A stretch of 64,000 bases of DNA, taken from assembly GCA_964542475.1 (NCBI GenBank), contig CAZIUL010000003.1, forward strand, positions 19,826 to 83,825, given 5' to 3'. The DNA is from an uncultured Phycisphaerales bacterium. Lineage in GTDB: Bacteria > Planctomycetota > B15-G4 > CAYZWU01. The notes beneath the pieces were generated by a model, which had not been told where the DNA came from, searched no databases, and saw only the letters and a list, made by a program, of their open reading frames with translations. A program made the position numbers and the translations under genes. How positions within the stretch are numbered: the first letter of the stretch is position 1; each line of letters opens with the position of its first letter. This document shows positions 3,954-57,558 of this stretch, piece after piece.

Positions 3954-5174
3954 ATGGCTGAGGAATTCTCAAATCCATTTCGTCCGGGAGCGGGCCACAA
4001 ACCTCCATACCTAGCAGGTCGCGCCGAGGAGACCAAGGAATTTAGGCGTTTGCTTGAACAGAAGGTGATTCTGGAGAATCTCGTCCTCACAGGGCTACGG
4101 GGTGTTGGGAAGACGGTCCTCTTGGACACGTTGAAACCTATCGCTATCCAGGAAAAATGGCGCTGGGTTGGCACCGATTTATCCGAGTCATCCAGCATCA
4201 GCGAAGAGAGAATAGTCCTTCGTCTTCTCACAGATCTGTCCGTCCTGACGGCATCATTCGTAATCGGAGAACGCGAACGATCAAATATCGGATTTGGAGC
4301 GACCCCCTCCCGAGATGAAATCAAGCTTGATTTTCAGACTCTGCAGTCAATCTATACGTCCACACCAGGCCTGCCCTCCGACAAACTCAAGCGGGTCCTG
4401 GAGGTCGTTTGGTCTGTCCTGAAGCAGACCTCTGATAGCGGGTTGATCTTCGCCTATGACGAAGCCCAGAACTTGGCGGACCACGCCGCTAAAGACAACT
4501 ACCCACTTTCCTTGCTCCTTGACGTCTTTCAATCTATTCAGAAGAAAGACATCCCATTCATGCTTATCCTGGTTGGGCTCCCACCGCTCTTCCCCAAGCT
4601 GGTGGAGGCCCGAACCTTTGCTGAGCGTATGTTCCGTGTTGTGTTCTTAGATAGCCTCAAAAAGCCGGAAAGCCGAGACGCGATACTGAAACCAATCGAG
4701 AACGCCCACTGCCCTGTCAGGCTAGATGAGCTATCCATCAAACTCATCGTAGAAGTTTCAGGTGGCTACCCTTACCTCATTCAGTTCGTCTGTCACGAGG
4801 TCTATGACACATTCGCGCAGGGACAAACCTCGGTTCCAGTTGCCGAAATTACAAGAAAACTGGACTCTGATTTCTTTGCGGGTCGCTGGGCTCGCGCAAC
4901 TGACCGCCAGCGGGAATTGATGATAGTCATCGCGCAACTGGACACCTCCGCGGCCGAGTTTACCGTCCAGGAAATCGCCGAGAAGTCCAAGCAACTGTTG
5001 GACAGGCCGTTTAGCTCGAGTCACATCAATCAGATGCTCGTGGCGCTCTCGAACTCGGGTTTGATTTACAAGAACAGGCACGGACGTTACTCCTTCGCGG
5101 TGCCGTTGCTTAACCAGTTCATCCGCCGCCAGATATCAAACGAGTACGAGACACCGCCAAACGACGGGTTGTAG
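3954..5174 (+). CDS. AAA/STAND-like ATPase (Arch_ATPase / AAA_16-like) with a C-terminal winged-helix (DUF234-like) domain
   Basis: 406 aa. The N-terminus NPFRPGAGHKPPYLAGRAEE...LL is characteristic of this ATPase family. There is a Walker A (GLRGVGKT) and a Walker B-like motif (LIFAYDEAQN). The C-terminal tail (RYSFAVPLLNQFIRRQ) is wHTH-like. Confidence 0.7.
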   Translation: MAEEFSNPFRPGAGHKPPYLAGRAEETKEFRRLLEQKVILENLVLTGLRGVGKTVLLDTLKPIAIQEKWRWVGTDLSESSSISEERIVLRLLTDLSVLTASFVIGERERSNIGFGATPSRDEIKLDFQTLQSIYTSTPGLPSDKLKRVLEVVWSVLKQTSDSGLIFAYDEAQNLADHAAKDNYPLSLLLDVFQSIQKKDIPFMLILVGLPPLFPKLVEARTFAERMFRVVFLDSLKKPESRDAILKPIENAHCPVRLDELSIKLIVEVSGGYPYLIQFVCHEVYDTFAQGQTSVPVAEITRKLDSDFFAGRWARATDRQRELMIVIAQLDTSAAEFTVQEIAEKSKQLLDRPFSSSHINQMLVALSNSGLIYKNRHGRYSFAVPLLNQFIRRQISNEYETPPNDGL

Positions 5175-5377
5175 AAACTCTTCCAGGAGGCAAGGTTTCC
5201 ACGAGTTGGCAGCCCAACAGGGATTTCAGCAAATAATCGCCTTCGCCGGAGACGGAAAGCTTAGAGACGAAAGCGATGCTGCGGCGGATCTCCTGGACGA
5301 CATTTCTTTTCTTAGCCATTTCATTGCTCCGTAATCAGGCCCAGGTCCTAATGTACGGAGTCGAGACGCGTCGTCAA

Positions 5378-5412
5378 CCTCTTAGGGAATGGTTCTATGA
5401 ATCCCTAAGAGG
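5378..5412. repeat. Perfect 11-bp inverted repeat (CCTCTTAGGGA ... TCCCTAAGAGG) with a 13-nt loop
   Basis: Read directly from the sequence. It lies at the right edge of the lower-GC island, downstream of the ATPase gene. No U-tract follows it. Confidence 0.6.
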
Positions 5413-5557
5413 CTGTCGACTCTCACTTAGCTCGAAATTATTTCGTTTCTCAAATTGGTTGACGTTGAACAGTCTGCTATAGAGGCGATCATGAAATCCG
5501 GCCACTGAAGATCTTCCCCTTTTCAAGGCGCACTGAAATACGCGTGCTAATTAAAAA

Positions 5558-5613
5558 ATCCGTATTAATCCGTGTCCATCCGTGGTTCTCTTTTTCTTTC
5601 TTCCTCCTCTTCC
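5558..5613 (+). repeat. Repeat family A, copy 1: three 10-bp-phased ATCCGT direct repeats followed by a polypyrimidine tract
   Basis: The sequence is aATCCGTattaATCCGTgtccATCCGTggttctctttttctttcttcctcct. It lies 45-100 bp upstream of sirC. Near-identical copies occur at 8885-8929 (inverted) and 11606-11640. Confidence 0.7.
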
Positions 5614-5655
5614 TAAAGCTTCCCCTCCCTCTGGACGCCTTTCCGGGAATACACT

Positions 5656-6339
5656 ATGATGGCCGGCTGGAGCAAAAACGACATGGCGGACCTTTATCCC
5701 GTATTCATCGACCTCGAAAACAAACCCTGCCTCGTGGTGGGGGGCGGAAGGGTTGCGCTCAGAAAGATCGAGGCCCTGCTCGGGGCGGGCGCTGAAGTGA
5801 CGGTTGTTGACCCGCATCCGGACCCGGAGCTTTGTTCCATGGCCGGTGCCGGTAAGCTCGTGCTGTCGGAGCGCCCTTTTGAAAGCGGCCTTGTGTGCGG
5901 AATGTGGCTCGTCTTCTGCGCGACCGATGACAAGGAGGTGAACCGCTCCGTGTACGAGGCCTGCGAAAAGATGCGCATCCCGGCAAACGTTGCGGACGAC
6001 CCCGCGCTCTGCAGGTTCCACGTGCCTGCCAGGTACACCGAAGGCCTGCTCCAGGCGGCTGTTTCCACACGCGGAGGCAGCCCGGCGTTCAGCCGCCATC
6101 TCCGCATCGAGCTCGAAAAGCGGTTCTCCCCATGGGCCCCGCTCCTCGTGGAGTGGCTGAATGCGCTCCGGCCGCGGCTGAAAGAGATCGTGCCGGATGA
6201 TGCGAAACAGCGCGGTGAGTTCTTGAAAAAGCTCATCGAACACAACGGGAAAAAGATCGAAGCCTTTGCCCGTGAGGGTGATGTAAAATCGTTCGACAAG
6301 CTTGTCGCGGCAGAGCTTCGCAAGATAACAAAAGGCTGA
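5656..6339 (+). CDS. sirC: Precorrin-2 dehydrogenase / sirohydrochlorin ferrochelatase (siroheme synthase N-terminal-type, SirC/Met8-like)
   Basis: VVGGGRVALRKIEALLGAGAEVTVV is an NAD-binding motif that matches the CysG N-domain. The gene is 227 aa and is followed by hemC and cobA/hemD. Confidence 0.75.
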   Translation: MMAGWSKNDMADLYPVFIDLENKPCLVVGGGRVALRKIEALLGAGAEVTVVDPHPDPELCSMAGAGKLVLSERPFESGLVCGMWLVFCATDDKEVNRSVYEACEKMRIPANVADDPALCRFHVPARYTEGLLQAAVSTRGGSPAFSRHLRIELEKRFSPWAPLLVEWLNALRPRLKEIVPDDAKQRGEFLKKLIEHNGKKIEAFAREGDVKSFDKLVAAELRKITKG

Positions 6340-6395
6340 GCTTTCATGAAAGCCGGCAACAGCTCCCCGCTTTTGCGGCTTTTGAAAGGCTGTTC

Positions 6396-7334
6396 ATGCG
6401 TCCAAAGGAACAATCTGTAAGGATCGGCACGCGCGGAAGCAGGCTTGCGCTGATACAGGCGCATTCCGTGCAGTCGGCCCTGACAGCCCGCTGCCCCGGG
6501 CTTGGCACCGAAATCATGACCATCAAGAGCGAGGGGGAAAAGAAGCCGTCAACCGATCTCAGGGAGATCTCGGGGGACGGAATCTTTACAAAGGAGCTCG
6601 ACCTTGCCCTCATCGCGCGCCGCATCGACCTGGCCGTGCATTCCATGAAAGACCTCCCCACCAGCATGCACGAAGGTGTCGAGCTTGCAGCGGTTACAGG
6701 CAGGGAAGAGCCCGGGGAAGCGTTTGTATCCGATTCGTACGACAAGCTCGACGAGCTCCCAAAGGGCGCGCGTGTTGGAACAGGAAGCCCGCGCCGCAAG
6801 GCGCAGCTCCTTTTTGCGAGGCCTGATCTCGAAATCGTCTCCATGAGGGGCAACGTGGAAACCCGGCTCGACAAAATGGGGCGCGGCCAGGCTGACGCCC
6901 TGATCCTGGCGTGCGCAGGGCTGCACAGGCTCGGGCTCGAGGCAAGGATCAGGGAACGCCTTCCGATCGACGCCTTTGTGCCCCCGCCGGGCCAGGGCAC
7001 GATCGGCATAACAATGCGCTCGGGGGACGGCAAAACAGCTTCCCTTGCCTCGCTCGTGAACGACATTGAAACCGCCGCCGCAACAGCGGCTGAAAGGGCG
7101 TTCCTCGTGCGTCTCGGCGGCGGGTGCAAGACACCTATCGCGTGCCATGCCGTGTCAAAAGAAGGGCGGCTCGACGTGATCGGGTTCGTTGCTTCCCCGG
7201 ACGGCACCGCCGTGATAAAAGAAAGCGCATCCGGCCCCGCGGAAAACGGGGCTGATATCGGCGTGGCGCTCGCTCAAAAGCTCCTGTCGCTTGGCGCGGG
7301 CGCGATCCTCGCGGAGAACGAGCATGGCGGATAA
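6396..7334 (+). CDS. hemC: Porphobilinogen deaminase (hydroxymethylbilane synthase)
   Basis: VRIGTRGSRLALIQAHSV is the classic HemC N-terminal signature. The gene is 312 aa. Confidence 0.9.
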   Translation: MRPKEQSVRIGTRGSRLALIQAHSVQSALTARCPGLGTEIMTIKSEGEKKPSTDLREISGDGIFTKELDLALIARRIDLAVHSMKDLPTSMHEGVELAAVTGREEPGEAFVSDSYDKLDELPKGARVGTGSPRRKAQLLFARPDLEIVSMRGNVETRLDKMGRGQADALILACAGLHRLGLEARIRERLPIDAFVPPPGQGTIGITMRSGDGKTASLASLVNDIETAAATAAERAFLVRLGGGCKTPIACHAVSKEGRLDVIGFVASPDGTAVIKESASGPAENGADIGVALAQKLLSLGAGAILAENEHGG

Positions 7335-8868
7335 CCGTAAAAACGACCGCGAAATCGATCACAAGGTTTACCTCGTGGGCGCGGGCCCGGGCGACCCGGG
7401 GCTCATCACCGTAAAGGGGCTGGCGCTCCTGAAAAGGGCTGATGCTGTTGTGTACGATTTTCTCGCGAACAAGCAGCTCCTTGTCCACGCCCGGGAAAGC
7501 GCGGAAAAGGTGTGTGCCGGCAAAAGCGCGGGCAGGCACACCATGCCACAGGACGAGATAAACCGGCTTCTCGTCAAGCTCTGGCGCGAAGGCAAAACTG
7601 TCGTGCGCCTCAAGGGGGGCGACCCTTTCGTTTTCGGCCGGGGCGGGGAGGAGGCGCTCGCTCTTTCTGAATCGGGCGTGCCGTTCGAAGTCGTTCCCGG
7701 CATAACAGCCGGGCTCGCAGGGCTTGCTTACGCGGGGATCCCCCCGACACACCGCGGGCTCGCGGTGAGCACAACCCTTGTCACCGGCCACGAAGACCCG
7801 GCCAAGGAAGGCTCACACCTCGATCTCGAGGCCCTTGCCGCGTGCAAGGGCACGCTGGTCTTTTACATGGGTGTGCGAACCCTTCCGGCCACGGTGAAAG
7901 GGCTCGTTAAAGGAGGCCTTCCGCCCGGAACCCCTGCCGCCCTGGTGTACATGGCATCCACGCCCGAGCAGAAGGTCGTGTCATCCACCCTCGACAAAAT
8001 CGAAGCCGAATCAAAAAAAGCCGGCATCAAACCCCCGGCCCTTTTTGTTGTCGGGCGCGTTGCCGAGCTTCGGCCGCGGCTGAACTGGTTCGAGGATCTC
8101 CCGCTGTTCGGAAAACGGATAGTGATCACTCGCCCGCGCGAGCAGAGCTCGAGACAGCGGCTGTCACTGGAGAAACTCGGGGCCCATGTGGTGGATCACG
8201 CCTCGATCTCGATCCTGCCTCCCGAGGATTACTCTCCTCTCGACCGCGCGATCGATAACATAGAGGAGTATTTCTTCCTCATCTTCACCTCGCACAACGG
8301 GGTGAGGTTCTTTTTCGAGCGGCTGCGCACGCTCGGGCACGACGCGAGAAAACTCGCAAAAAACCGGATCTGCGTGATCGGGCCCGGAACCGGAAAAGCG
8401 CTCGAAAGACACGGCCTTCGCGCGGACCTGATGCCGGGCAGCTACACATCAGAAGAGCTGGTGCCCGCGATCGAACAGAAATGGAGTTGCTTGAACGGCA
8501 AAAAAGCCCTTCTTCCGCGGGCTGACATCGCGCCGGACCACATCCTGAAAAAACTCGTGAAGGCAGGGGTTTCCGCGGAATCCGTGATTGCATACCGCAC
8601 GGTCCCGGCATCGCAAGACAGCGAGGAGCTGAAAGGCATGATAAAGGCGGGCGGGATCCACGCGGCAACCTTTGCCAGCTCCTCGGCAGCCAGGAGCTTC
8701 GTGAACATGCTCGGTAAAGGCTTTCTTTCCGAATCAAAAGGAAAGATGGCTTTCGTGAGCATCGGACCTGTCACCACCAAGACCCTGAATGAGCTAGGAT
8801 TCCCGCCGGATGCCCAGGCGAGCGAACACACCATCGAGGGCCTGACCAGTGCCGTGGCAGGGTTATGA
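7324..8868 (+). CDS. cobA/hemD: Bifunctional uroporphyrinogen-III C-methyltransferase / uroporphyrinogen-III synthase (CobA-HemD fusion)
   Basis: VYLVGAGPGDPGLITVKGLALLKRADAVVYD is the CobA/SUMT signature, and the C-terminal half is HemD-like. The start at MADNRKN (7324) overlaps the hemC stop by 11 bp; the ORF-track start at 7291 is probably an over-extension. Confidence 0.85.
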   Translation: MADNRKNDREIDHKVYLVGAGPGDPGLITVKGLALLKRADAVVYDFLANKQLLVHARESAEKVCAGKSAGRHTMPQDEINRLLVKLWREGKTVVRLKGGDPFVFGRGGEEALALSESGVPFEVVPGITAGLAGLAYAGIPPTHRGLAVSTTLVTGHEDPAKEGSHLDLEALAACKGTLVFYMGVRTLPATVKGLVKGGLPPGTPAALVYMASTPEQKVVSSTLDKIEAESKKAGIKPPALFVVGRVAELRPRLNWFEDLPLFGKRIVITRPREQSSRQRLSLEKLGAHVVDHASISILPPEDYSPLDRAIDNIEEYFFLIFTSHNGVRFFFERLRTLGHDARKLAKNRICVIGPGTGKALERHGLRADLMPGSYTSEELVPAIEQKWSCLNGKKALLPRADIAPDHILKKLVKAGVSAESVIAYRTVPASQDSEELKGMIKAGGIHAATFASSSAARSFVNMLGKGFLSESKGKMAFVSIGPVTTKTLNELGFPPDAQASEHTIEGLTSAVAGL

Positions 8869-8884
8869 GGCTTTGAGCCACAGA

Positions 8885-8929
8885 AGGAGGAAGAAAGAAA
8901 GAGAACCACGGATGGACACGGATCTTTTT
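8885..8929 (-). repeat. Repeat family A, copy 2 (inverted orientation): two phased ATCCGT repeats plus a polypyrimidine tract
   Basis: The reverse complement reads aaaaagATCCGTgtccATCCGTggttctctttctttcttcctcc. It lies between the cobA/hemD stop and the phoD-like start. Its translation creates the artefactual RVHPWFSF peptides in the ORF track. Confidence 0.7.
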
Positions 8930-8986
8930 TACAGCGGCGGAGAAAGGCGAGGTAAACCAATAACAATTAACAAAGGGATTCATCCC

Positions 8987-11605
8987 ATGAAAAACAGGTC
9001 ATTAAAACGCTTCAACCCTTTGATTTACATGATCGCGGTTGCTTTCGCTCTTTCCTCCAATGCAGGAGCGGATGAGTTCAAAAGCGAATGGCCGGATGGA
9101 ATCGAGCGCGTCTGGGCCGGCCCTGAATACTGGGCGAACCGCCTCCAGGACTGGAGGGTGCGGGAGGGGAGGCTGGAAAACGTTTTCCAGGGCAAGAACC
9201 GGAATGTCCACCTTCTCACGCACCAGGTAAACGGTTCCGCGGGTGGTTTTTCCATTCGTGTGCGCCTCGGGCTCGTTCCCGGGGAGCGCGGATCAGCCCC
9301 TGCCCAGGGATGGGCCGGTTTTCTCGTGGGCGCCAAGGGCGAGTTCAACGACTACCGGGACAGCGCCGTTCACGGAAAGGGGTTGAGCGCGGGTGTCTCG
9401 TGTTCGGGAGAGCTTTTCATCGGCCAGTGGAAGGCTGTGGAAGCCAAAGCCCAAGAGCCGTGTTCCCGGCTGAGAACCGGAATCGAGCTCCTCTTCACGG
9501 CAAACCCGGAAGGGGAGAATTTCATTGTCGGGCTCACAGCATACGATCCCCGGACCGGATCCATGCTCAGCCACATCTGCAAAAGGAACCTGCCGCAGGA
9601 TGAGCTCAGCGGCAACCTGGCGCTTGTCAGCCATTTCAAAAACAAGAGCTCTTCTTCGGAAGACAAGGTCTGCGCCTGGTTCTCGGGCTGGACCGCTCAA
9701 GGGCCCGGCATTGAAGCCCGCCCGGACCGGGCTTTCGGCCCGGTGTTGTTCGCGCAGCACACGCTCAGCAGGGGGATCTTGAAGATGACGGCGCAGATGC
9801 CTCCCCTTTGCGACAAGGACGGAAGAGTGGTCAGCCTGCAGGTGAAAGGCGCGTCCAGCACCATCTGGAAAACGGTGTCCGAGGCAGCCATCGAACCGTT
9901 TTCGTGCACGGCAGCCCTGCGCGTTGAAAACTGGGATTCGTCAAGGGATGTGCCGTTCCGCGTCGAGCACGAGCTCTTCTCAGCGGGCGGTGTGCTGAAA
10001 AAGCACTACTGGCACGGAACAGTGCGCGCGGAGCCGTGGGAAAAGGATGTGATCGTTCTTGCCGCTTTCACCGGGAACAACGACCTCGGCTTTCCCAACA
10101 ACGACCTGGTCGCCCACGTGAAATCACACGATCCGGACCTTCTGTTCTTTTCGGGCGACCAGATCTACGAGGGCGTGGGGGGTTACGGAGCGCAGAGGGA
10201 ACCGGTTCACAAGGCTCGGCTGGACTACCTCAGGAAGTGGTACCTTTACGGCTGGGCGTACGGCGGCCTCCTGCGGGAGCGGCCTAGTGTGAGCATTCCC
10301 GACGATCACGATGTGTACCACGGCAACATCTGGGGAGCGGGCGGCAAGGCGACCGCAAAGGAAGGAAGCGGCAGCGTAAGGCAGGACAGCGGCGGATACA
10401 AGATGCCTCCCGAATGGGTCAACATGGTGGAGCGAACCCAGACCAGCCACCTGCCCGATCCTTTCGATCCCACGCCCGTGAAGCAGGGAATCGGCGTCTA
10501 CTACTGCGAGATGAACTACGCCGGCATCAGCTTTGCAATCATCGAGGACAGGAAGTTCAAGTCCGCGCCGAAAGCCCTCATCCCAAAGGCCGAGGTATGG
10601 AACGGGTGGCCTCAGAACAAGGAGTTCGCGGCCGCTGAGGAGGGTGATGTTCCGGAAGCGGATCTTCTCGGCGAGAGGCAGCTTCTCTTTTTGCGTGACT
10701 GGGCAGCCGATTGGAGCGGCAAGGCATGGATGAAGGCGGTGCTTTCGCAGACGGTCTTCACCAACATCGCGACCATTCCAAAGGAGGCGACAAGCGGCGC
10801 GGTGATCCCGGGGCTGCCCATTCTCGAGCCGGGTGTATATGTGGAAGGCGACAAGATGGCCGCGGACATGGATTCGAACGGGTGGCCGCAGTCCGGCAGA
10901 AGGCGCGCGCTGCACGAGATCAGGCGCGGATTCGCGCTGCACATCGCAGGGGATCAGCATCTCGGAAGCACTGTCCAGTACGGCGTGGACGAGTTCAACG
11001 ACGCGGCGTTCGCCATCTGCGTGCCGTCCATCTCGAACGTCTGGCCGCGGCGGTGGTTCCCGCCGGAGCCGGGCCGAAACCGCAGGCCGGGCTCCCCCGA
11101 ATACACCGGCGAGCTCAAGGACGGTTTCGGAAACCTGATGACCGTCCATGCCGTGTCCAACCCGCACAAGACCGGAAAAAAACCCTCACGGCTGTACGAC
11201 CGCGCAACCGGGTACGGCATCGTGCGGTTCAGGCGAAAGGACCGGGATGTCATCTTCGAGAACTGGCCGAGGTGGACCGATCCTGCGGCAAAAGGCGCGA
11301 AACCGTACCCCGGGTGGCCGGTGCGGTTCAACCAACTCGACAACTACGGCAAGACAGCCGCGGGCCTGCTTCCGCGGATCGAGGTGTCCGGATTGAAAGA
11401 CCCTGTGGTGCAGGTCATTCGCGAACACGATGAAGAAACGGTCTACACCATTCGCATAAACGGAACATCTTTCAGCCCGATGGTGTTCGAGGAGGGCAGC
11501 CACACCGTGCTGGTCGGCGACCCGGACACAAGGCAGATGAAGAGAATACCGGGGCTCGCGCCCGTGCCGCAACGCAATGAGCAGAAGGTCAAGGTCTCGT
11601 TCTGA
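8987..11605 (+). CDS. Secreted PhoD-like phosphodiesterase/alkaline phosphatase with a ~390-aa N-terminal extension
   Basis: A signal peptide (MKNRSLKRFNPLIYMIAVAFALSSNAGA) is present. The PhoD-type metallophosphatase motifs DLLFFSGDQIYE and IPDDHDVYHGN lie in the C-terminal half. The ORF-track start at 8849 runs through a repeat element, so I chose the 8987 ATG. Confidence 0.7.
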   Translation: MKNRSLKRFNPLIYMIAVAFALSSNAGADEFKSEWPDGIERVWAGPEYWANRLQDWRVREGRLENVFQGKNRNVHLLTHQVNGSAGGFSIRVRLGLVPGERGSAPAQGWAGFLVGAKGEFNDYRDSAVHGKGLSAGVSCSGELFIGQWKAVEAKAQEPCSRLRTGIELLFTANPEGENFIVGLTAYDPRTGSMLSHICKRNLPQDELSGNLALVSHFKNKSSSSEDKVCAWFSGWTAQGPGIEARPDRAFGPVLFAQHTLSRGILKMTAQMPPLCDKDGRVVSLQVKGASSTIWKTVSEAAIEPFSCTAALRVENWDSSRDVPFRVEHELFSAGGVLKKHYWHGTVRAEPWEKDVIVLAAFTGNNDLGFPNNDLVAHVKSHDPDLLFFSGDQIYEGVGGYGAQREPVHKARLDYLRKWYLYGWAYGGLLRERPSVSIPDDHDVYHGNIWGAGGKATAKEGSGSVRQDSGGYKMPPEWVNMVERTQTSHLPDPFDPTPVKQGIGVYYCEMNYAGISFAIIEDRKFKSAPKALIPKAEVWNGWPQNKEFAAAEEGDVPEADLLGERQLLFLRDWAADWSGKAWMKAVLSQTVFTNIATIPKEATSGAVIPGLPILEPGVYVEGDKMAADMDSNGWPQSGRRRALHEIRRGFALHIAGDQHLGSTVQYGVDEFNDAAFAICVPSISNVWPRRWFPPEPGRNRRPGSPEYTGELKDGFGNLMTVHAVSNPHKTGKKPSRLYDRATGYGIVRFRRKDRDVIFENWPRWTDPAAKGAKPYPGWPVRFNQLDNYGKTAAGLLPRIEVSGLKDPVVQVIREHDEETVYTIRINGTSFSPMVFEEGSHTVLVGDPDTRQMKRIPGLAPVPQRNEQKVKVSF

Positions 11606-11640
11606 TTCCATCCGTGTTCATCCGTGGTTCCTTTTCCGTC
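11606..11640 (+). repeat. Repeat family A, copy 3: two phased ATCCGT repeats
   Basis: The sequence is ccATCCGTgttcATCCGTggttcc, immediately after the phoD-like stop and between convergent genes. Confidence 0.6.
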
Positions 11641-11641
11641 T

Positions 11642-13486
11642 TCAATTCGTTCTGACTTCCAGAATGAACCGCTCGGGATTGTCCGCAACGCTGATCAGCT
11701 TGAATGCAACCGTGATCTCATCGTTTAGCTGTCTCGAGTATTCATGGAGAACGGCGCTCTCCCCGGTATTCCCGAAAAACGATTGCGCCCCCGAAGAGTA
11801 GCTCCGGCCGTTTTGCCTGATGCCCACCTCGGTGCGCTCGAACATGTACCTTCCGTCTCCTGCCGCCCCGGATATGTCAGGAGTCACCCGCAGGCACTCT
11901 ACCTTGAGGTCTCCGTTTTTACCTTTGGCGAAAAAACACACCTGTTCGTTCAGGCGGATCTCCATCTTCTCCGTCTTTGCTCCCGGCGTGAGCTCGGCAA
12001 TGCCCATCTCCTCGAAAAGGCCGGGCAGCTCCTCCACGGGCGGATCCGCAAGGCTTTCGTCACCCAGCTTCTTTGCCAGCTCCCGGATTTTTTTCTGGAG
12101 CTCCTGGTACTCCTTTAAAGTATAAAGCAGAGCCGCGGCTCTGGTCAGGGCCTTGCCTGCCTTCAGATCGTCCTTGAGCTGTTTGTGATAGTAATCGGCC
12201 AGGGCCAGCAGCAGTGCGGGATCGTCCGGAGGATTCTCTTCGATCAGCTTCATCACCCTTTCTTTTTGGCTTGTGGTCATGTTGTTGAAGAAAACGATCA
12301 GCTCCTTTGCCCGGGCTCCGGACTCGAAAAAACGTTCAATGGCCTCCACGATCTCGTCGCGCGAAAAGCTGTGGCAATAGACCATGCAGTAATCCGATGC
12401 GCCTTTTTCGGGCTGCTCTGTTGACTCCATTCCATTCACTATCTGATCTATGTCTATCTTGAAGGACCGGGGCGGATCAGGCCTCTTGTAGATGTACAGC
12501 TCCCGATTGCCCGAGGACATTTGAAAGACGCGCTTTTTGTCCACGCTCTGGTCCTGCCATCCCTTTTTTACGAGCTCTTTCTCGATTTCCGCGAACAGCT
12601 CCACAGGATCGCGGGACTCCTGAAACCTCCAGATCGCACGGTTGTGCGCGAACAGGCCCGCGCCCGATCCGACCGGTTCGATCCCTTCAATCCCGGCCCC
12701 GGCAAACGGAAGGTCCGCGTGCTCTGCGGCCTCTCCGAAAAAACAGGCCGGAAGATCCGGGAGCGTTCCAAGATTCCGGCTCCACTCTTTTGTCTTTTCT
12801 TCCAGGCTGCCCCACAACGAACCGGTAATGGATTCGGCTGCCGGTTTGTATTTAGCACCTGCTGAAAGCAGGCCTATGTACGTTCCATCGTGGTCGACAA
12901 CGGCTGTCATGTGCACATTTGCAACCGGCGGTGAGGACGGCGAAACTCTCACATACGCGGAATCCCACGGCGCGGGCCCGGCATCGAGACTGACCTGTGC
13001 CTCGAGCTTGAACCCCCCGGGCAAGCGGAACTCCTCGATGTCGAGGAGATCCAGCGTAATGACAAGCTCCGGCATGAGCTCGCAGGTCTCGGGAACCTGG
13101 CCGTACGGGACATAAACCGCCTCATCCACGAAAGGAAGCCCTGCAACCTTTTGGAGGACCATCCGCCCGATCTTCCGGACAAGGCAATGATCGGATGCGC
13201 TCATCACCCAGACACGCCGGGCCGCAAAACAGCCCCACTGCCCGCGGCTCGTTGTGTGGCTTGTTGACGAAAGAGAGTTGACAGCAGAGCTCACAACAGC
13301 ATGAAGGTTAAAACCGGAGCCTTCCTCGCCAAGCGCAACTTTCATCCGGCCCTCTTCATCACGTTTCATTTTCAACATGGAATCAACAGAAGATCCCATG
13401 GGCATGTAGGTAATGAAAACCAACAATCCAAGAAGCCCCAAGAGGATAAATAACAGTTTCCTGAACACGCTTTTCTTTTTTTTCAT
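11642..13486 (-). CDS. Hypothetical signal-anchored/secreted protein (614 aa)
   Basis: It has an N-terminal hydrophobic segment (LLFILLGLLGLLVFI) and no recognisable catalytic motif. Confidence 0.45.
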   Translation of the reverse strand: MKKKKSVFRKLLFILLGLLGLLVFITYMPMGSSVDSMLKMKRDEEGRMKVALGEEGSGFNLHAVVSSAVNSLSSTSHTTSRGQWGCFAARRVWVMSASDHCLVRKIGRMVLQKVAGLPFVDEAVYVPYGQVPETCELMPELVITLDLLDIEEFRLPGGFKLEAQVSLDAGPAPWDSAYVRVSPSSPPVANVHMTAVVDHDGTYIGLLSAGAKYKPAAESITGSLWGSLEEKTKEWSRNLGTLPDLPACFFGEAAEHADLPFAGAGIEGIEPVGSGAGLFAHNRAIWRFQESRDPVELFAEIEKELVKKGWQDQSVDKKRVFQMSSGNRELYIYKRPDPPRSFKIDIDQIVNGMESTEQPEKGASDYCMVYCHSFSRDEIVEAIERFFESGARAKELIVFFNNMTTSQKERVMKLIEENPPDDPALLLALADYYHKQLKDDLKAGKALTRAAALLYTLKEYQELQKKIRELAKKLGDESLADPPVEELPGLFEEMGIAELTPGAKTEKMEIRLNEQVCFFAKGKNGDLKVECLRVTPDISGAAGDGRYMFERTEVGIRQNGRSYSSGAQSFFGNTGESAVLHEYSRQLNDEITVAFKLISVADNPERFILEVRTN

Positions 13487-13652
13487 CTATCTCTCCGCAA
13501 TCATCTCTTGTTTGCGCGAATTAATCGGAAAACAAATACCAGTTCATTGTACAGATCTTCAAGACAAACAGGTTCAAAAAATCGGCTGGAGGCGGAGGAA
13601 GAAAAGGGGGGACGGTTTCCACGCCGTCCTCATTCGGTGTAGGTTCGTTTGC

Positions 13653-13728
13653 GGCGCCGACAAAGCGGCGCCCTCCATGCCGCCTCTTCTCTTCCGGTCG
13701 GGAAGAAATCCGACCCTCCATACCGTCC
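13653..13728 (+). repeat. Repeat family C: tandem hairpin-CTCCAT modules (GGCGCCGacaaagCGGCGCC-CTCCATG ... GGTCGGgaagaaatCCGACC-CTCCATA)
   Basis: Read directly from the sequence, in a divergent intergenic region. It is near-identical to 23558-23600 and related to 36693-36770. Confidence 0.6.
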
Positions 13729-23466: not shown

Positions 23467-23610
23467 GAGCAGAGGGCGAATAATTTTTTCGCCCCTACGG
23501 CGCCGACGGAGCGGCGCCCTCCATTGTTCAACCGGCGCATACCGTTTCTTCTCTTACGGCGTCGACAAAGCGACGCCCTCCATGCCGCCTCTTCCCTGCG
23601 GCGCCCTCTA
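23467..23610. repeat. Composite REP-like element: family B hairpin (GGGCGAAtaattttTTCGCCC, 23474-23494) plus two family C hairpin-CTCCAT modules (23499-23524, 23558-23584)
   Basis: It lies between convergent operon ends. The second C module carries compensatory changes (GGCGTCG/CGACGCC versus GGCGCCG/CGGCGCC), so the stem is conserved. Confidence 0.65.
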
Positions 23611-36692: not shown

Positions 36693-36770
36693 AGGCGCGC
36701 CGGTTGGACAATGGAGGGCGCCGCTCCGTCGGCGCCGGAAAGAAAGGCGGCAAGAGACTGCCGCCCTCCC
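36693..36770 (-). repeat. Repeat family C, inverted copy (ATGGAG-GGCGCCGctccgtCGGCGCC plus a second GGCGGCAagagacTGCCGCC hairpin)
   Basis: The reverse complement of 36717-36761 is near-identical to 23499-23543. It lies in the tal upstream / lptD downstream region. Confidence 0.6.
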
Positions 36771-50714: not shown

Positions 50715-50889
50715 CGGTTACCCCGATCACGTTTCCGGTCCCTTGAAAGCTGTCACGAGAAAGAAACTATCCCTAATTTTCCTTCATGTAAACAATAAAC
50801 CTGTCTCCGATGAATCCGGGGATTATAATGTGTTTGTGTCTCTTTCCAAGGGGAGGATAGGAAGGCCGGAGGAAGAGAAAGAAAGAAGA

Positions 50890-50909
50890 GGGCGAATAAT
50901 TTTTCGCCC
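50890..50909. repeat. Repeat family B hairpin (GGGCGAAtaattTTCGCCC)
   Basis: It lies in the divergent region between the histidine kinase and the BNR protein. Nearly the same element occurs at 23474-23494 and 57526-57545. Confidence 0.6.
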
Positions 50910-50941
50910 CTACGACATGAACAACTTAGGGAGGATGAACA

Positions 50942-57485: not shown

Positions 57486-57525
57486 GGTTCCGCCTCCCAA
57501 CGTTATTGAATTGCAAGGGCGGGAA

Positions 57526-57545
57526 GGGCGAAAGATTTTTCGCCC
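57526..57545. repeat. Repeat family B hairpin (GGGCGAAagatttTTCGCCC)
   Basis: It lies between the thioredoxin stop and the start of the PLP enzyme gene. Confidence 0.6.
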
Positions 57546-57558
57546 CCACAGGCCTTCT

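Follow-up and report, generated by a model that had tools for sequence, protein, structure and literature searches.

The DNA examined here is a 64-kb stretch of contig CAZIUL010000003.1 from an uncultured Phycisphaerales bacterium, referred to below as the window. Near the haem genes sirC, hemC and cobA-hemD and a gene for a PhoD-like phosphatase it carries three copies of a short repeat, which a first-pass annotation described as ATCCGT hexamers in 10-bp phase with a pyrimidine tract. We analyzed these copies in the window and at related loci in other genomes, and we propose that they are probably arms of a dispersed inverted-repeat element whose recurrent gene belongs to the GxxExxY family. 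The copies and their surroundings, with window positions and strand, are as follows (aa, amino acids; nt, nucleotides).

5175..5557 (no strand): non-coding stretch of 383 nt upstream of copy 1
5558..5587 (+): copy 1, a complete 3-unit arm of the 3' type, ATCCGTATTA-ATCCGTGTCC-ATCCGTGGTT; position-weight-matrix score 41.2 of 47.3 possible
5588..5614 (+): pyrimidine tail of copy 1, CTCTTTTTCTTTCTTCCTCCTCTTCCT, 27 nt; complement of the Shine-Dalgarno-like purine tract that precedes 5' arms
5656..8868 (+): sirC, hemC and cobA-hemD genes, between copies 1 and 2; context, outside the element
8882..8903 (+): purine tract AGAAGGAGGAAGAAAGAAAGAG, a Shine-Dalgarno-like leader just outside the arm of copy 2
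8904..8923 (+): copy 2, read on the plus strand as a 2-unit arm of the 5' type, AACCACGGAT-GGACACGGAT, with an ATG inside it (8912-8914)
8987..11605 (+): gene for a PhoD-like phosphatase (PF09423), 872 aa from the signal-peptide start
11610..11629 (+): copy 3, a 2-unit arm of the 3' type, ATCCGTGTTC-ATCCGTGGTT
11630..11643 (+): tail of copy 3, CCTTTTCCGTCTTC, which extends the complementarity with the purine tract preceding copy 2 (34 nt, 85%)

The phased arrays reported by the first-pass annotation are real. In copy 1, ATCCGT stands at 5558, 5568 and 5578, i.e., in exact 10-bp steps, and is followed by CTCTTTTTCTTTCTTCCTCCTCTTCC; copy 2 has it on the minus strand at 8918 and 8908, and copy 3 at 11610 and 11620. 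The 21-mer ATCCGTGTCCATCCGTGGTTC occurs exactly at 5568-5588(+) and 8903-8923(-) and with one mismatch at 11610-11630(+), where no occurrence was expected. The phased pattern ATCCGTNNNNATCCGT had four exact matches and a further match with one mismatch elsewhere (21286) versus 0.40 expected, and no shuffled sequence reached five. Since the bare hexamer was not enriched in the window (33 observed vs. 29.5 expected), the signal is the phased array and not the hexamer. That copy 2 is inverted and resembles copy 1 was also borne out, as the two are 100% complementary over 26 nt and their likeness runs on through the pyrimidine tract past a 2-nt indel. Copy 3, with its two hexamers, is more diverged, as had been stated, and is 85% complementary to copy 2 over 34 nt. 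The peptide RVHPWFSF is indeed a translation of copy 1, inside the open reading frame (ORF) 5544-5795. A position-weight scan of the whole 64-kb window raised only copies 1-3 above background, with no fourth copy, and Rfam at gathering thresholds gave no match anywhere in the window. RNA duplexes predicted between copies 1 and 2 and between copies 2 and 3 had energies of -78.5 and -58.6 kcal/mol, compared with -26 and -31 (standard deviation 4.4) for shuffled controls.

A profile of 130 oriented copies showed a sharply bounded arm of 30 nt, ATCCGTGTyy ATCCGTGTYC ATCCGTGGTT, with an unconserved left flank and a short, G-poor tail on the right. The 10-bp phasing of the earlier description thus stands, but the conserved unit is 10 nt long (ATCCGTGTYY; terminal unit ATCCGTGGTT) rather than a hexamer plus spacer. 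In an exact scan of one genome per species, the 20-mer ATCCGTGTYCATCCGTGGTT was found at no fewer than 119 genome loci. Among the 80 matches listed, 48 were from Verrucomicrobiota, Planctomycetota, Kiritimatiellota or Lentisphaerota (PVC phyla), and the others listed bore labels of Proteobacteria, Bacteroidota, Acidobacteriota, Nitrospirota, Elusimicrobia and others. The same 20-mer was present in 36 stretches of viral contigs (IMG/VR). Variant families share the architecture and have another unit (ATTCGTG, ATCTGTG, ATTCGCG or ATTTGCG), and the number of units per arm varies from 2 to 5. Literature searches with the repeat sequence and the peptide IRVHPW returned unrelated polymerase chain reaction primers only, and searches under the names GxxExxY, PDDEXK_3 and S23p yielded no description of these repeats. 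Rfam, run on 18 loci that carry arm pairs, found only tRNA and a glycine riboswitch, both away from the arms. The element family apparently lacks a description in Rfam and in the searchable literature.

A 20-nt weight matrix was run on 155 loci (1.16 Mb). Neighbouring arms were outward-facing (AACC...ACGGAT - spacer - ATCCGT...GGTT) in 104 cases vs. 25 inward-facing, and nearly all outward-facing pairs lay less than 300 nt apart. We catalogued 71 compact inverted pairs of about 48-180 nt; roughly half of the arms had an inverted partner, a share that varied by test. Gene proximity, counted by symmetric head/tail tests, showed that in other genomes the GGTT end adjoins gene starts 34 times and gene ends 38 times, and that the opposite side is mostly non-coding, an asymmetry that exists because the arm is half of an inverted-repeat element. 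The interiors of the pairs differ across genomes and recur inside one genome (L006, L047, L012/L057, L124/L154), therefore whole units have been dispersed. None of the 71 pairs had an immediate repeat of 3 nt or more that would mark a target-site duplication, and flank similarity was barely above that of shuffled partners. Among the 155 loci, no arm pair was 0.7-2.5 kb apart, the size of an element with a transposase.

Some sites were filled in one phage and empty in a related one. Hairpins occupy intergenic gaps of the structural-gene module of the phage-like contig L154, and arms were scored at just four of 80 relatives of its capsid gene, one of which (L291) was a false positive. L246, whose capsid is 88% identical, is without both of the hairpins that flank the capsid gene in L244 and L245; thus, its sites are empty where those of its relatives are filled. 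At an analogous place L307 (59% capsid identity) carries an independent hairpin of the ATCCGCG type. The intergenic sequence around the capsid hairpins is too diverged to fix the exact ends of the element. BLAST of a 76-nt hairpin against plasmids gave no match.

Three arm pairs in the first set of loci enclose a gene of about 135 aa that was identified as NCBIfam TIGR04256 "GxxExxY protein" (E=4e-36) and Pfam PF13366 PDDEXK_3. All three GxxExxY genes of the arm-selected loci sit between arms, and in these three the ATG is inside the arm (AACCACGG ATG AAC ACG GAT GAA CAC GGA T = MNTDEHG). This gene of about 125-135 aa, with a PD-(D/E)XK nuclease fold, was the sole recurrent gene between arms. 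The reverse test was performed on 80 metagenomic loci that encode relatives of the arm-enclosed GxxExxY proteins. A 5' terminal unit was present in 64 of these, beginning exactly 8 nt before the ATG in 51, so that the ATG is inside the arm, and a 3' arm past the stop codon in 69. The arm-ORF-arm form was seen at 42 of the 80 loci, with the 3' arm beginning about 5 nt past the stop, and 20 of the 80 had a compact hairpin downstream of the ORF. Element length was mostly 422-490 nt. In the canonical element, GAAGAGG adjoins the AACC of the 5' arm and CCTCTTC adjoins the GGTT of the 3' arm. The 5' arm is immediately preceded by a purine-rich tract of the Shine-Dalgarno type (GAAGAGG, GGAGGAG), and the complement CCTCTTC follows the 3' arm. 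The pyrimidine tract of the first-pass annotation is the complement of this ribosome-binding tract. That identity, the link to GxxExxY genes and the outward-facing pair of copies 2 and 3 had all been missed there.

Elements with a GxxExxY gene were found downstream of a DNA methylase gene and of a PglZ gene, and upstream of HsdM-like genes. Two plasmid-borne GxxExxY genes from cultured organisms, of only 36-39% identity, keep a ATCCGTGT core on both sides, one per side. On the Treponema saccharophilum plasmid (L237) these cores are in inverted orientation, whereas on that of Fusobacteria bacterium ZRK30 (L238) they make up a direct repeat of 22 nt. No solved structure was found for the GxxExxY family, and a superfamily survey gives its function as unknown (PMC3424549). 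The same intergenic sites in defence-type operons are reused by GxxExxY elements in different organisms with different arm variants. The loci concerned are listed by site.

Methylase site: L165, L170, L203, L207, L208, L217, L220
PglZ site: L172-L176, L187, L189, L190
HsdM site: L209-L212, L222

Two further loci have unusual contents. In L041 (5304-5873), a 189-aa ORF lies between two arms and begins at the arm ATG (MDTDKHG...); it had no Pfam or NCBIfam match and may be a second kind of cargo. In L096 (1-5100), at least four elements bounded by arms follow one another in tandem with a conserved 35-nt spacer between them; the array includes a GxxExxY gene and HepT/MNT toxin-antitoxin-like genes. 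In the same locus a gene for a four-helix bundle (S23p-like) is bracketed by another inverted array, (GGGGATT)n.

In the window, the slot that the small ORF occupies in canonical elements is filled by the PhoD-like gene, which has a 5'-type arm (copy 2) on one side and a 3'-type arm (copy 3) on the other. On the plus strand copy 2 reads purine tract, AACCACGG, ATG GAC ACG GAT, and its ATG at 8912 is in frame with the PhoD-like ORF. Copy 3 begins 4 nt past the PhoD-like stop, compared with about 5 nt for the canonical 3' arm. It ends 12 nt short of the stop of the convergent gene 11642-13486(-), and the gap between the convergent genes is 36 nt. The public protein record P0001 (897 aa, 100% identical) was called from the arm ATG at 8912 and thus has 25 extra residues, MDTDLFYSGGERRGKPITINKGIHP, starting MDTD.... 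This extension was present at the equivalent position in none of 23 aligned homologues, most of which have their start at the signal peptide, the equivalent of ATG 8987 in the window. To judge from this alignment, the N-terminal extension of P0001 is probably an annotation artefact caused by the arm. The exact protein starting at ATG 8987 is absent from the public record because the recorded gene begins at the arm ATG. Spurious "IRVHPWF" ORFs have likewise been called from arms.

Copy 1 had no partner arm within 330 nt. Together with the 383-nt stretch upstream it measures 413 nt, near the 422-490 nt of canonical elements, and one might conjecture that the two are a decayed element; no partner arm was detected there, and a search of the window that included 5150-5600 found no GxxExxY remnant. 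The 383-nt stretch, which begins after an AAA-ATPase gene, also contains a perfect 11-bp hairpin (CCTCTTAGGGA...TCCCTAAGAGG, at about 5380-5412). Downstream of copy 1, at 5632-5660, is a match to a sigma-70-like promoter, TGGACG-17-TATGAT, whose -10 box overlaps the sirC ATG. Since this site follows copy 1, the copy may be outside the sirC transcript.

We conclude, with a probability of about 0.65, that copies 1-3 are arms of a widespread selfish inverted-repeat element built like the intervening sequences of 23S rRNA. The observed base of this reading is the arm architecture, the dispersal of units, the filled and empty sites, the lack of duplications, the association with GxxExxY and the co-variation of arms. 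We are highly confident that the arms in the window belong to this element family, whether as relics or as parts, and are not regulatory sites for haem or phosphate genes. A full arm is ATCCGTGTYY-ATCCGTGTYC-ATCCGTGGTT, and two inverted arms with outer ends AACC...GGTT bracket either a short non-coding spacer, giving a hairpin of about 48-180 nt, or a GxxExxY gene. In the latter case the Shine-Dalgarno tract is outside the 5' arm, the ATG is inside it, and the 3' arm follows the stop at a distance of about 5 nt. Of the copies in the window, 2 and 3 are the 5'-type and 3'-type arms on either side of the PhoD-like gene, whereas copy 1, upstream of sirC, is a solo arm. In the mechanism that we envisage, arms transcribed together would pair as a long double-stranded RNA stem, which, by analogy with Coxiella, could be cut by RNase III; in the canonical element the stem would also bury the ribosome-binding site and the ATG. 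The conservation pattern suggests that a sequence-specific factor recognises the repeat units. The element's own PD-(D/E)XK protein is the most economical candidate, and recognition may drive spread through cutting and repair or through recombination, without a duplication being left. On this model the arms in the window would not regulate haem or phosphate metabolism.

Several points weigh against this interpretation. The 64-kb window contains no GxxExxY gene or remnant, so that no trans-acting partner is in view here, and the PhoD-like gene truly starts at 8987 and not at the ATG of the arm. There were no arms at the four loci of three of the closest PhoD-like homologues (55-58% identical), on which ground the PhoD-like gene was rejected as travelling cargo. 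Its bracket could be two unrelated solo arms, which would face outward by chance in about 1 of 4 cases; arms may also have captured the gene. A search for conserved rRNA motifs found no rRNA in 323 loci. The taxon labels are mostly those of metagenome bins, and the 80 matches listed include one isolate, Asticcacaulis biprosthecium C19. The set of 80 GxxExxY loci consists of the nearest relatives of genes that were originally found between arms; the association holds for that subfamily and is only hinted at beyond it. In the paired arms, sense-strand G.U mismatches (55) were no more frequent than A.C mismatches (59; p=0.78), i.e., there was no preference for G.U, and three positions per unit are not kept paired.

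The pairing analysis from which these last figures come covered 50 non-redundant elements. Terminal-unit cores were identical in both arms in 36 of 56 cases, where chance would give 12.3; the highest count among 2000 shuffles was 25. Pairing of the arms is near-perfect at seven positions per unit, including two that vary between variants, and loose at positions 1, 2 and 7; the arms co-vary at unit positions 5 and 8. Since there is no excess of G.U and some positions are loose, selection for RNA pairing alone does not explain the arm sequence. The units inside one arm are also alike, which pairing cannot explain. As conservation extends beyond pairing, the arms are constrained as sequence and not just as a stem. 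From this pattern it would appear that the arms have a sequence-specific partner, for which the element's own protein is the sole candidate in view. The 10-bp period need not reflect the DNA helix, as sister arrays have a period of 7 nt ((GGGGATT)n in L096; GACAGAT in Coxiella, PMC4990558).

One of the two readings in the first-pass annotation was that of operators, at which a regulator of the OmpR/PhoB or another type would bind the phased repeats and control the haem operon together with the PhoD-like gene. Spacing of exactly 10 bp would suit such sites, as would the conservation of 7 of 10 positions per unit as sequence, beyond pairing; that all units of one element share a variant, without G.U bias, fits recognition by a protein. 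We think this reading very unlikely. Copy 3 sits past a stop codon in the gap of a convergent gene pair, copy 2 is directed away from phoD, and elsewhere arms abut gene starts and ends about equally. Their neighbours are unrelated (phage capsid, methylase, PglZ, HsdM-like), arms occur inside phage structural modules, they form inverted pairs with variable spacers, and related phages differ in whether they carry them. The Pho box is CTGTCAT-N4-CTGTCAT, and the arms bear no likeness to it. PhoB/OmpR operators and iterons do resemble the arms in having direct repeats about one helical turn (10-11 bp) apart, but differ in position, orientation, neighbours, the architecture of inverted pairs and mobility; the 7-nt period of sister elements also speaks against operators (PMC4990558). 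A more serious alternative, which we nevertheless regard as unlikely, is an RNA device whose complementary ends close a transcript into a stem-loop that is processed by RNase III or is stabilising, dispersal being a side effect. The predicted duplexes are very stable, there is co-variation between arms at unit positions 5 and 8, the stem contains or adjoins the Shine-Dalgarno tract and the ATG, elements lie between co-transcribed genes, and the Coxiella intervening sequence, of the same layout, has been shown to be excised by RNase III (PMC4990558). Set against this are the G.U count, which does not exceed A.C on the sense strand, the frequently unpaired unit positions 1, 2 and 7, and the homogeneity of the three units per arm, which pairing does not explain. 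RNase III, moreover, does not require a specific sequence, yet that of the arms is nearly the same from phylum to phylum; no Rfam family matches; and the promoter-like site at 5632-5660 is downstream of copy 1.

Two kinds of mobile repeat were also weighed. A classical miniature inverted-repeat transposable element (MITE) would be moved in trans by the DDE transposase of a parent insertion sequence whose ends it shares, and would account for the terminal inverted repeats, the small size, the several copies per genome with a common interior and the insertion polymorphism. We consider it highly improbable, as 0 of 71 pairs have an immediate duplication of 3 nt or more, no arm pair at the 155 loci spans 0.7-2.5 kb, and the sole recurrent gene between arms encodes a PD-(D/E)XK protein of 125 aa. 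The earlier suggestion of a REP/MITE-like miniature element thus holds for the dispersed inverted-repeat ends but not for a classical MITE. Least probable of all is a doublet of repetitive extragenic palindromes (REPs) of the REPIN type, kept by a single-copy REP-associated (RAYT) tyrosine transposase. Inverted doublets, the lack of target-site duplication, decay to singlets and intergenic location are common to REPINs and the present elements, as are the many copies. The arm, however, consists of direct repeats and lacks both an internal palindrome and a GTAG head; no IS200-like gene was noticed between or beside arms, the flanking genes not having been scanned systematically. REPs are reportedly lineage-specific, whereas the same arm sequence occurs in many phyla. 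A REP unit is a short palindrome with a GTAG (or GTGG) head, in contrast to the triple direct repeat here, and the gene associated with the arms encodes a PD-(D/E)XK protein and not a Y1 transposase.

The selfish inverted-repeat element that we favour belongs, on its layout, with hairpin-bounded selfish elements, among which the 23S rRNA intervening sequence of Coxiella burnetii is the closest described system. The latter is a selfish element of 428 nt with inverted-repeat ends that pair as a stem, and in which an AG-rich Shine-Dalgarno tract and two or three tandem heptamers lead to the ATG of a small ORF, S23p; it is excised by RNase III and its origin is unexplained (PMC4990558). ORF-bearing intervening sequences of this kind (Coxiella, Leptospira; PMC4990558) resemble the GxxExxY elements in size (428 nt vs. 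422-490 nt), in the stem-forming inverted ends, and in the AG-rich Shine-Dalgarno tract with tandem repeats running into the ATG of a small ORF. They are likewise regarded as selfish, have a patchy distribution that suggests horizontal transfer, and vary in unit number (2-3 there, 2-5 here). The ORF there is, however, the S23p four-helix bundle and not a GxxExxY PD-(D/E)XK protein, the period is 7 nt (GACAGAT) and not 10 nt, and the site is helix 45 of 23S rRNA (helix 25 or 45 in the family) and not intergenic; the present family also includes many ORF-less hairpins and solo arms. RNase III processing has been shown in Coxiella, whereas for the present elements it is suggested by predicted duplex energies and by analogy.

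Other systems share fewer traits. The Correia/NEMIS MITEs of Neisseria are 100-160 bp long, with terminal inverted repeats of about 26 bp; they are intergenic and co-transcribed, and their hairpins are cut by RNase III. They are like the present elements in terminal inverted repeats, size class and intergenic siting. They differ in that a TA target is duplicated, the interior is conserved and they are known from a single genus. Free-standing homing endonuclease genes include seg/mob of phage T4 and those of PD-(D/E)XK homing enzymes. They too are small nuclease-fold genes between conserved genes, present or absent among relatives, with a ribosome-binding site occluded by a hairpin. In contrast to the GxxExxY elements, they are not known to have phased inverted-repeat brackets of 30 nt or ORF-less hairpin derivatives, and the nuclease activity of GxxExxY is a prediction.

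A broader proposal, which we offer tentatively and think doubtful as a whole, is that the arms and the GxxExxY gene constitute a hitherto undescribed kind of mobile element, in which a minimal PD-(D/E)XK nuclease would recognise the phased ATCCGTG units and spread its own gene and ORF-less hairpins over phyla and phages without target duplication. The arms would then be portable sites of recombination or homology that also bracket and exchange host genes, such as the PhoD-like gene here, and the ORF-bearing 23S rRNA intervening sequences would be one branch of the class. GxxExxY (PDDEXK_3) is a large family found in many phyla, and the phased ATCCGTG arms offer it a concrete candidate substrate. 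The same arms are offered as a candidate substrate for ORF-bearing 23S intervening sequences, whose origin has been open since the 1990s (PMC4990558) and which share the architecture of Shine-Dalgarno tract, tandem repeats holding the ATG, small ORF and complementary repeats. The arms also have practical consequences. They mislead gene callers, as in the false MDTD... extension of the PhoD-like protein and the "IRVHPWF" ORFs, and they could pass for regulatory sites. They put 20-45 bp of perfect complementarity into operons and phage late regions, where RNA processing is likely to be affected.

Several other identities for the repeat were tried and rejected. An intrinsic terminator would need a stronger stem than the 5-bp one with two G.T pairs that was flagged in each arm, and in most genomes an A/C-rich tail follows GGTT. 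A promoter with its -10 box in GGTTAAAAT would require an A that just 29% of copies have. A DnaA box (TTATCCACA vs. TTATCCGTG) and sites for extracytoplasmic function (ECF) sigma factors and sigma-54 were rejected on inspection, as was the alphaproteobacterial LexA box GTTC-N7-GTTC, which fits copy 3 only. On the reverse strand, ACACGGAUG resembles the consensus for CsrA-type GGA sites from systematic evolution of ligands by exponential enrichment (SELEX), but the arms show no strand preference relative to genes. Plasmid iterons were discarded, the neighbours being sirC, hemC, cobA-hemD and phoD with no rep gene or origin nearby. An integron attC site (RYYYAAC ... GTTRRRY) lies on the 3' side only of each cassette ORF. 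Here the ORF is inside the repeat pair, purines precede AACC, and GGTT is followed by C or A, with no RRRY.

The window contains two further repeat families. The second is a hairpin, GGCGCCG-ACAAAG-CGGCGCC, followed by CTCCAT; its copies are intergenic and 90-98% alike, and lie at the following positions.

13652-13678 (+)
23498-23524 (+)
23557-23583 (+)
36711-36737 (inverted)

The third is the REP-like hairpin AGGGCGAATAATTTTTCGCCCCTAC, with the stem GGGCGAA/TTCGCCC and ending in CTAC, at 23473-23497, 50889-50913 and 57525-57549. The second and third families directly abut at 23473-23583, between convergent genes.

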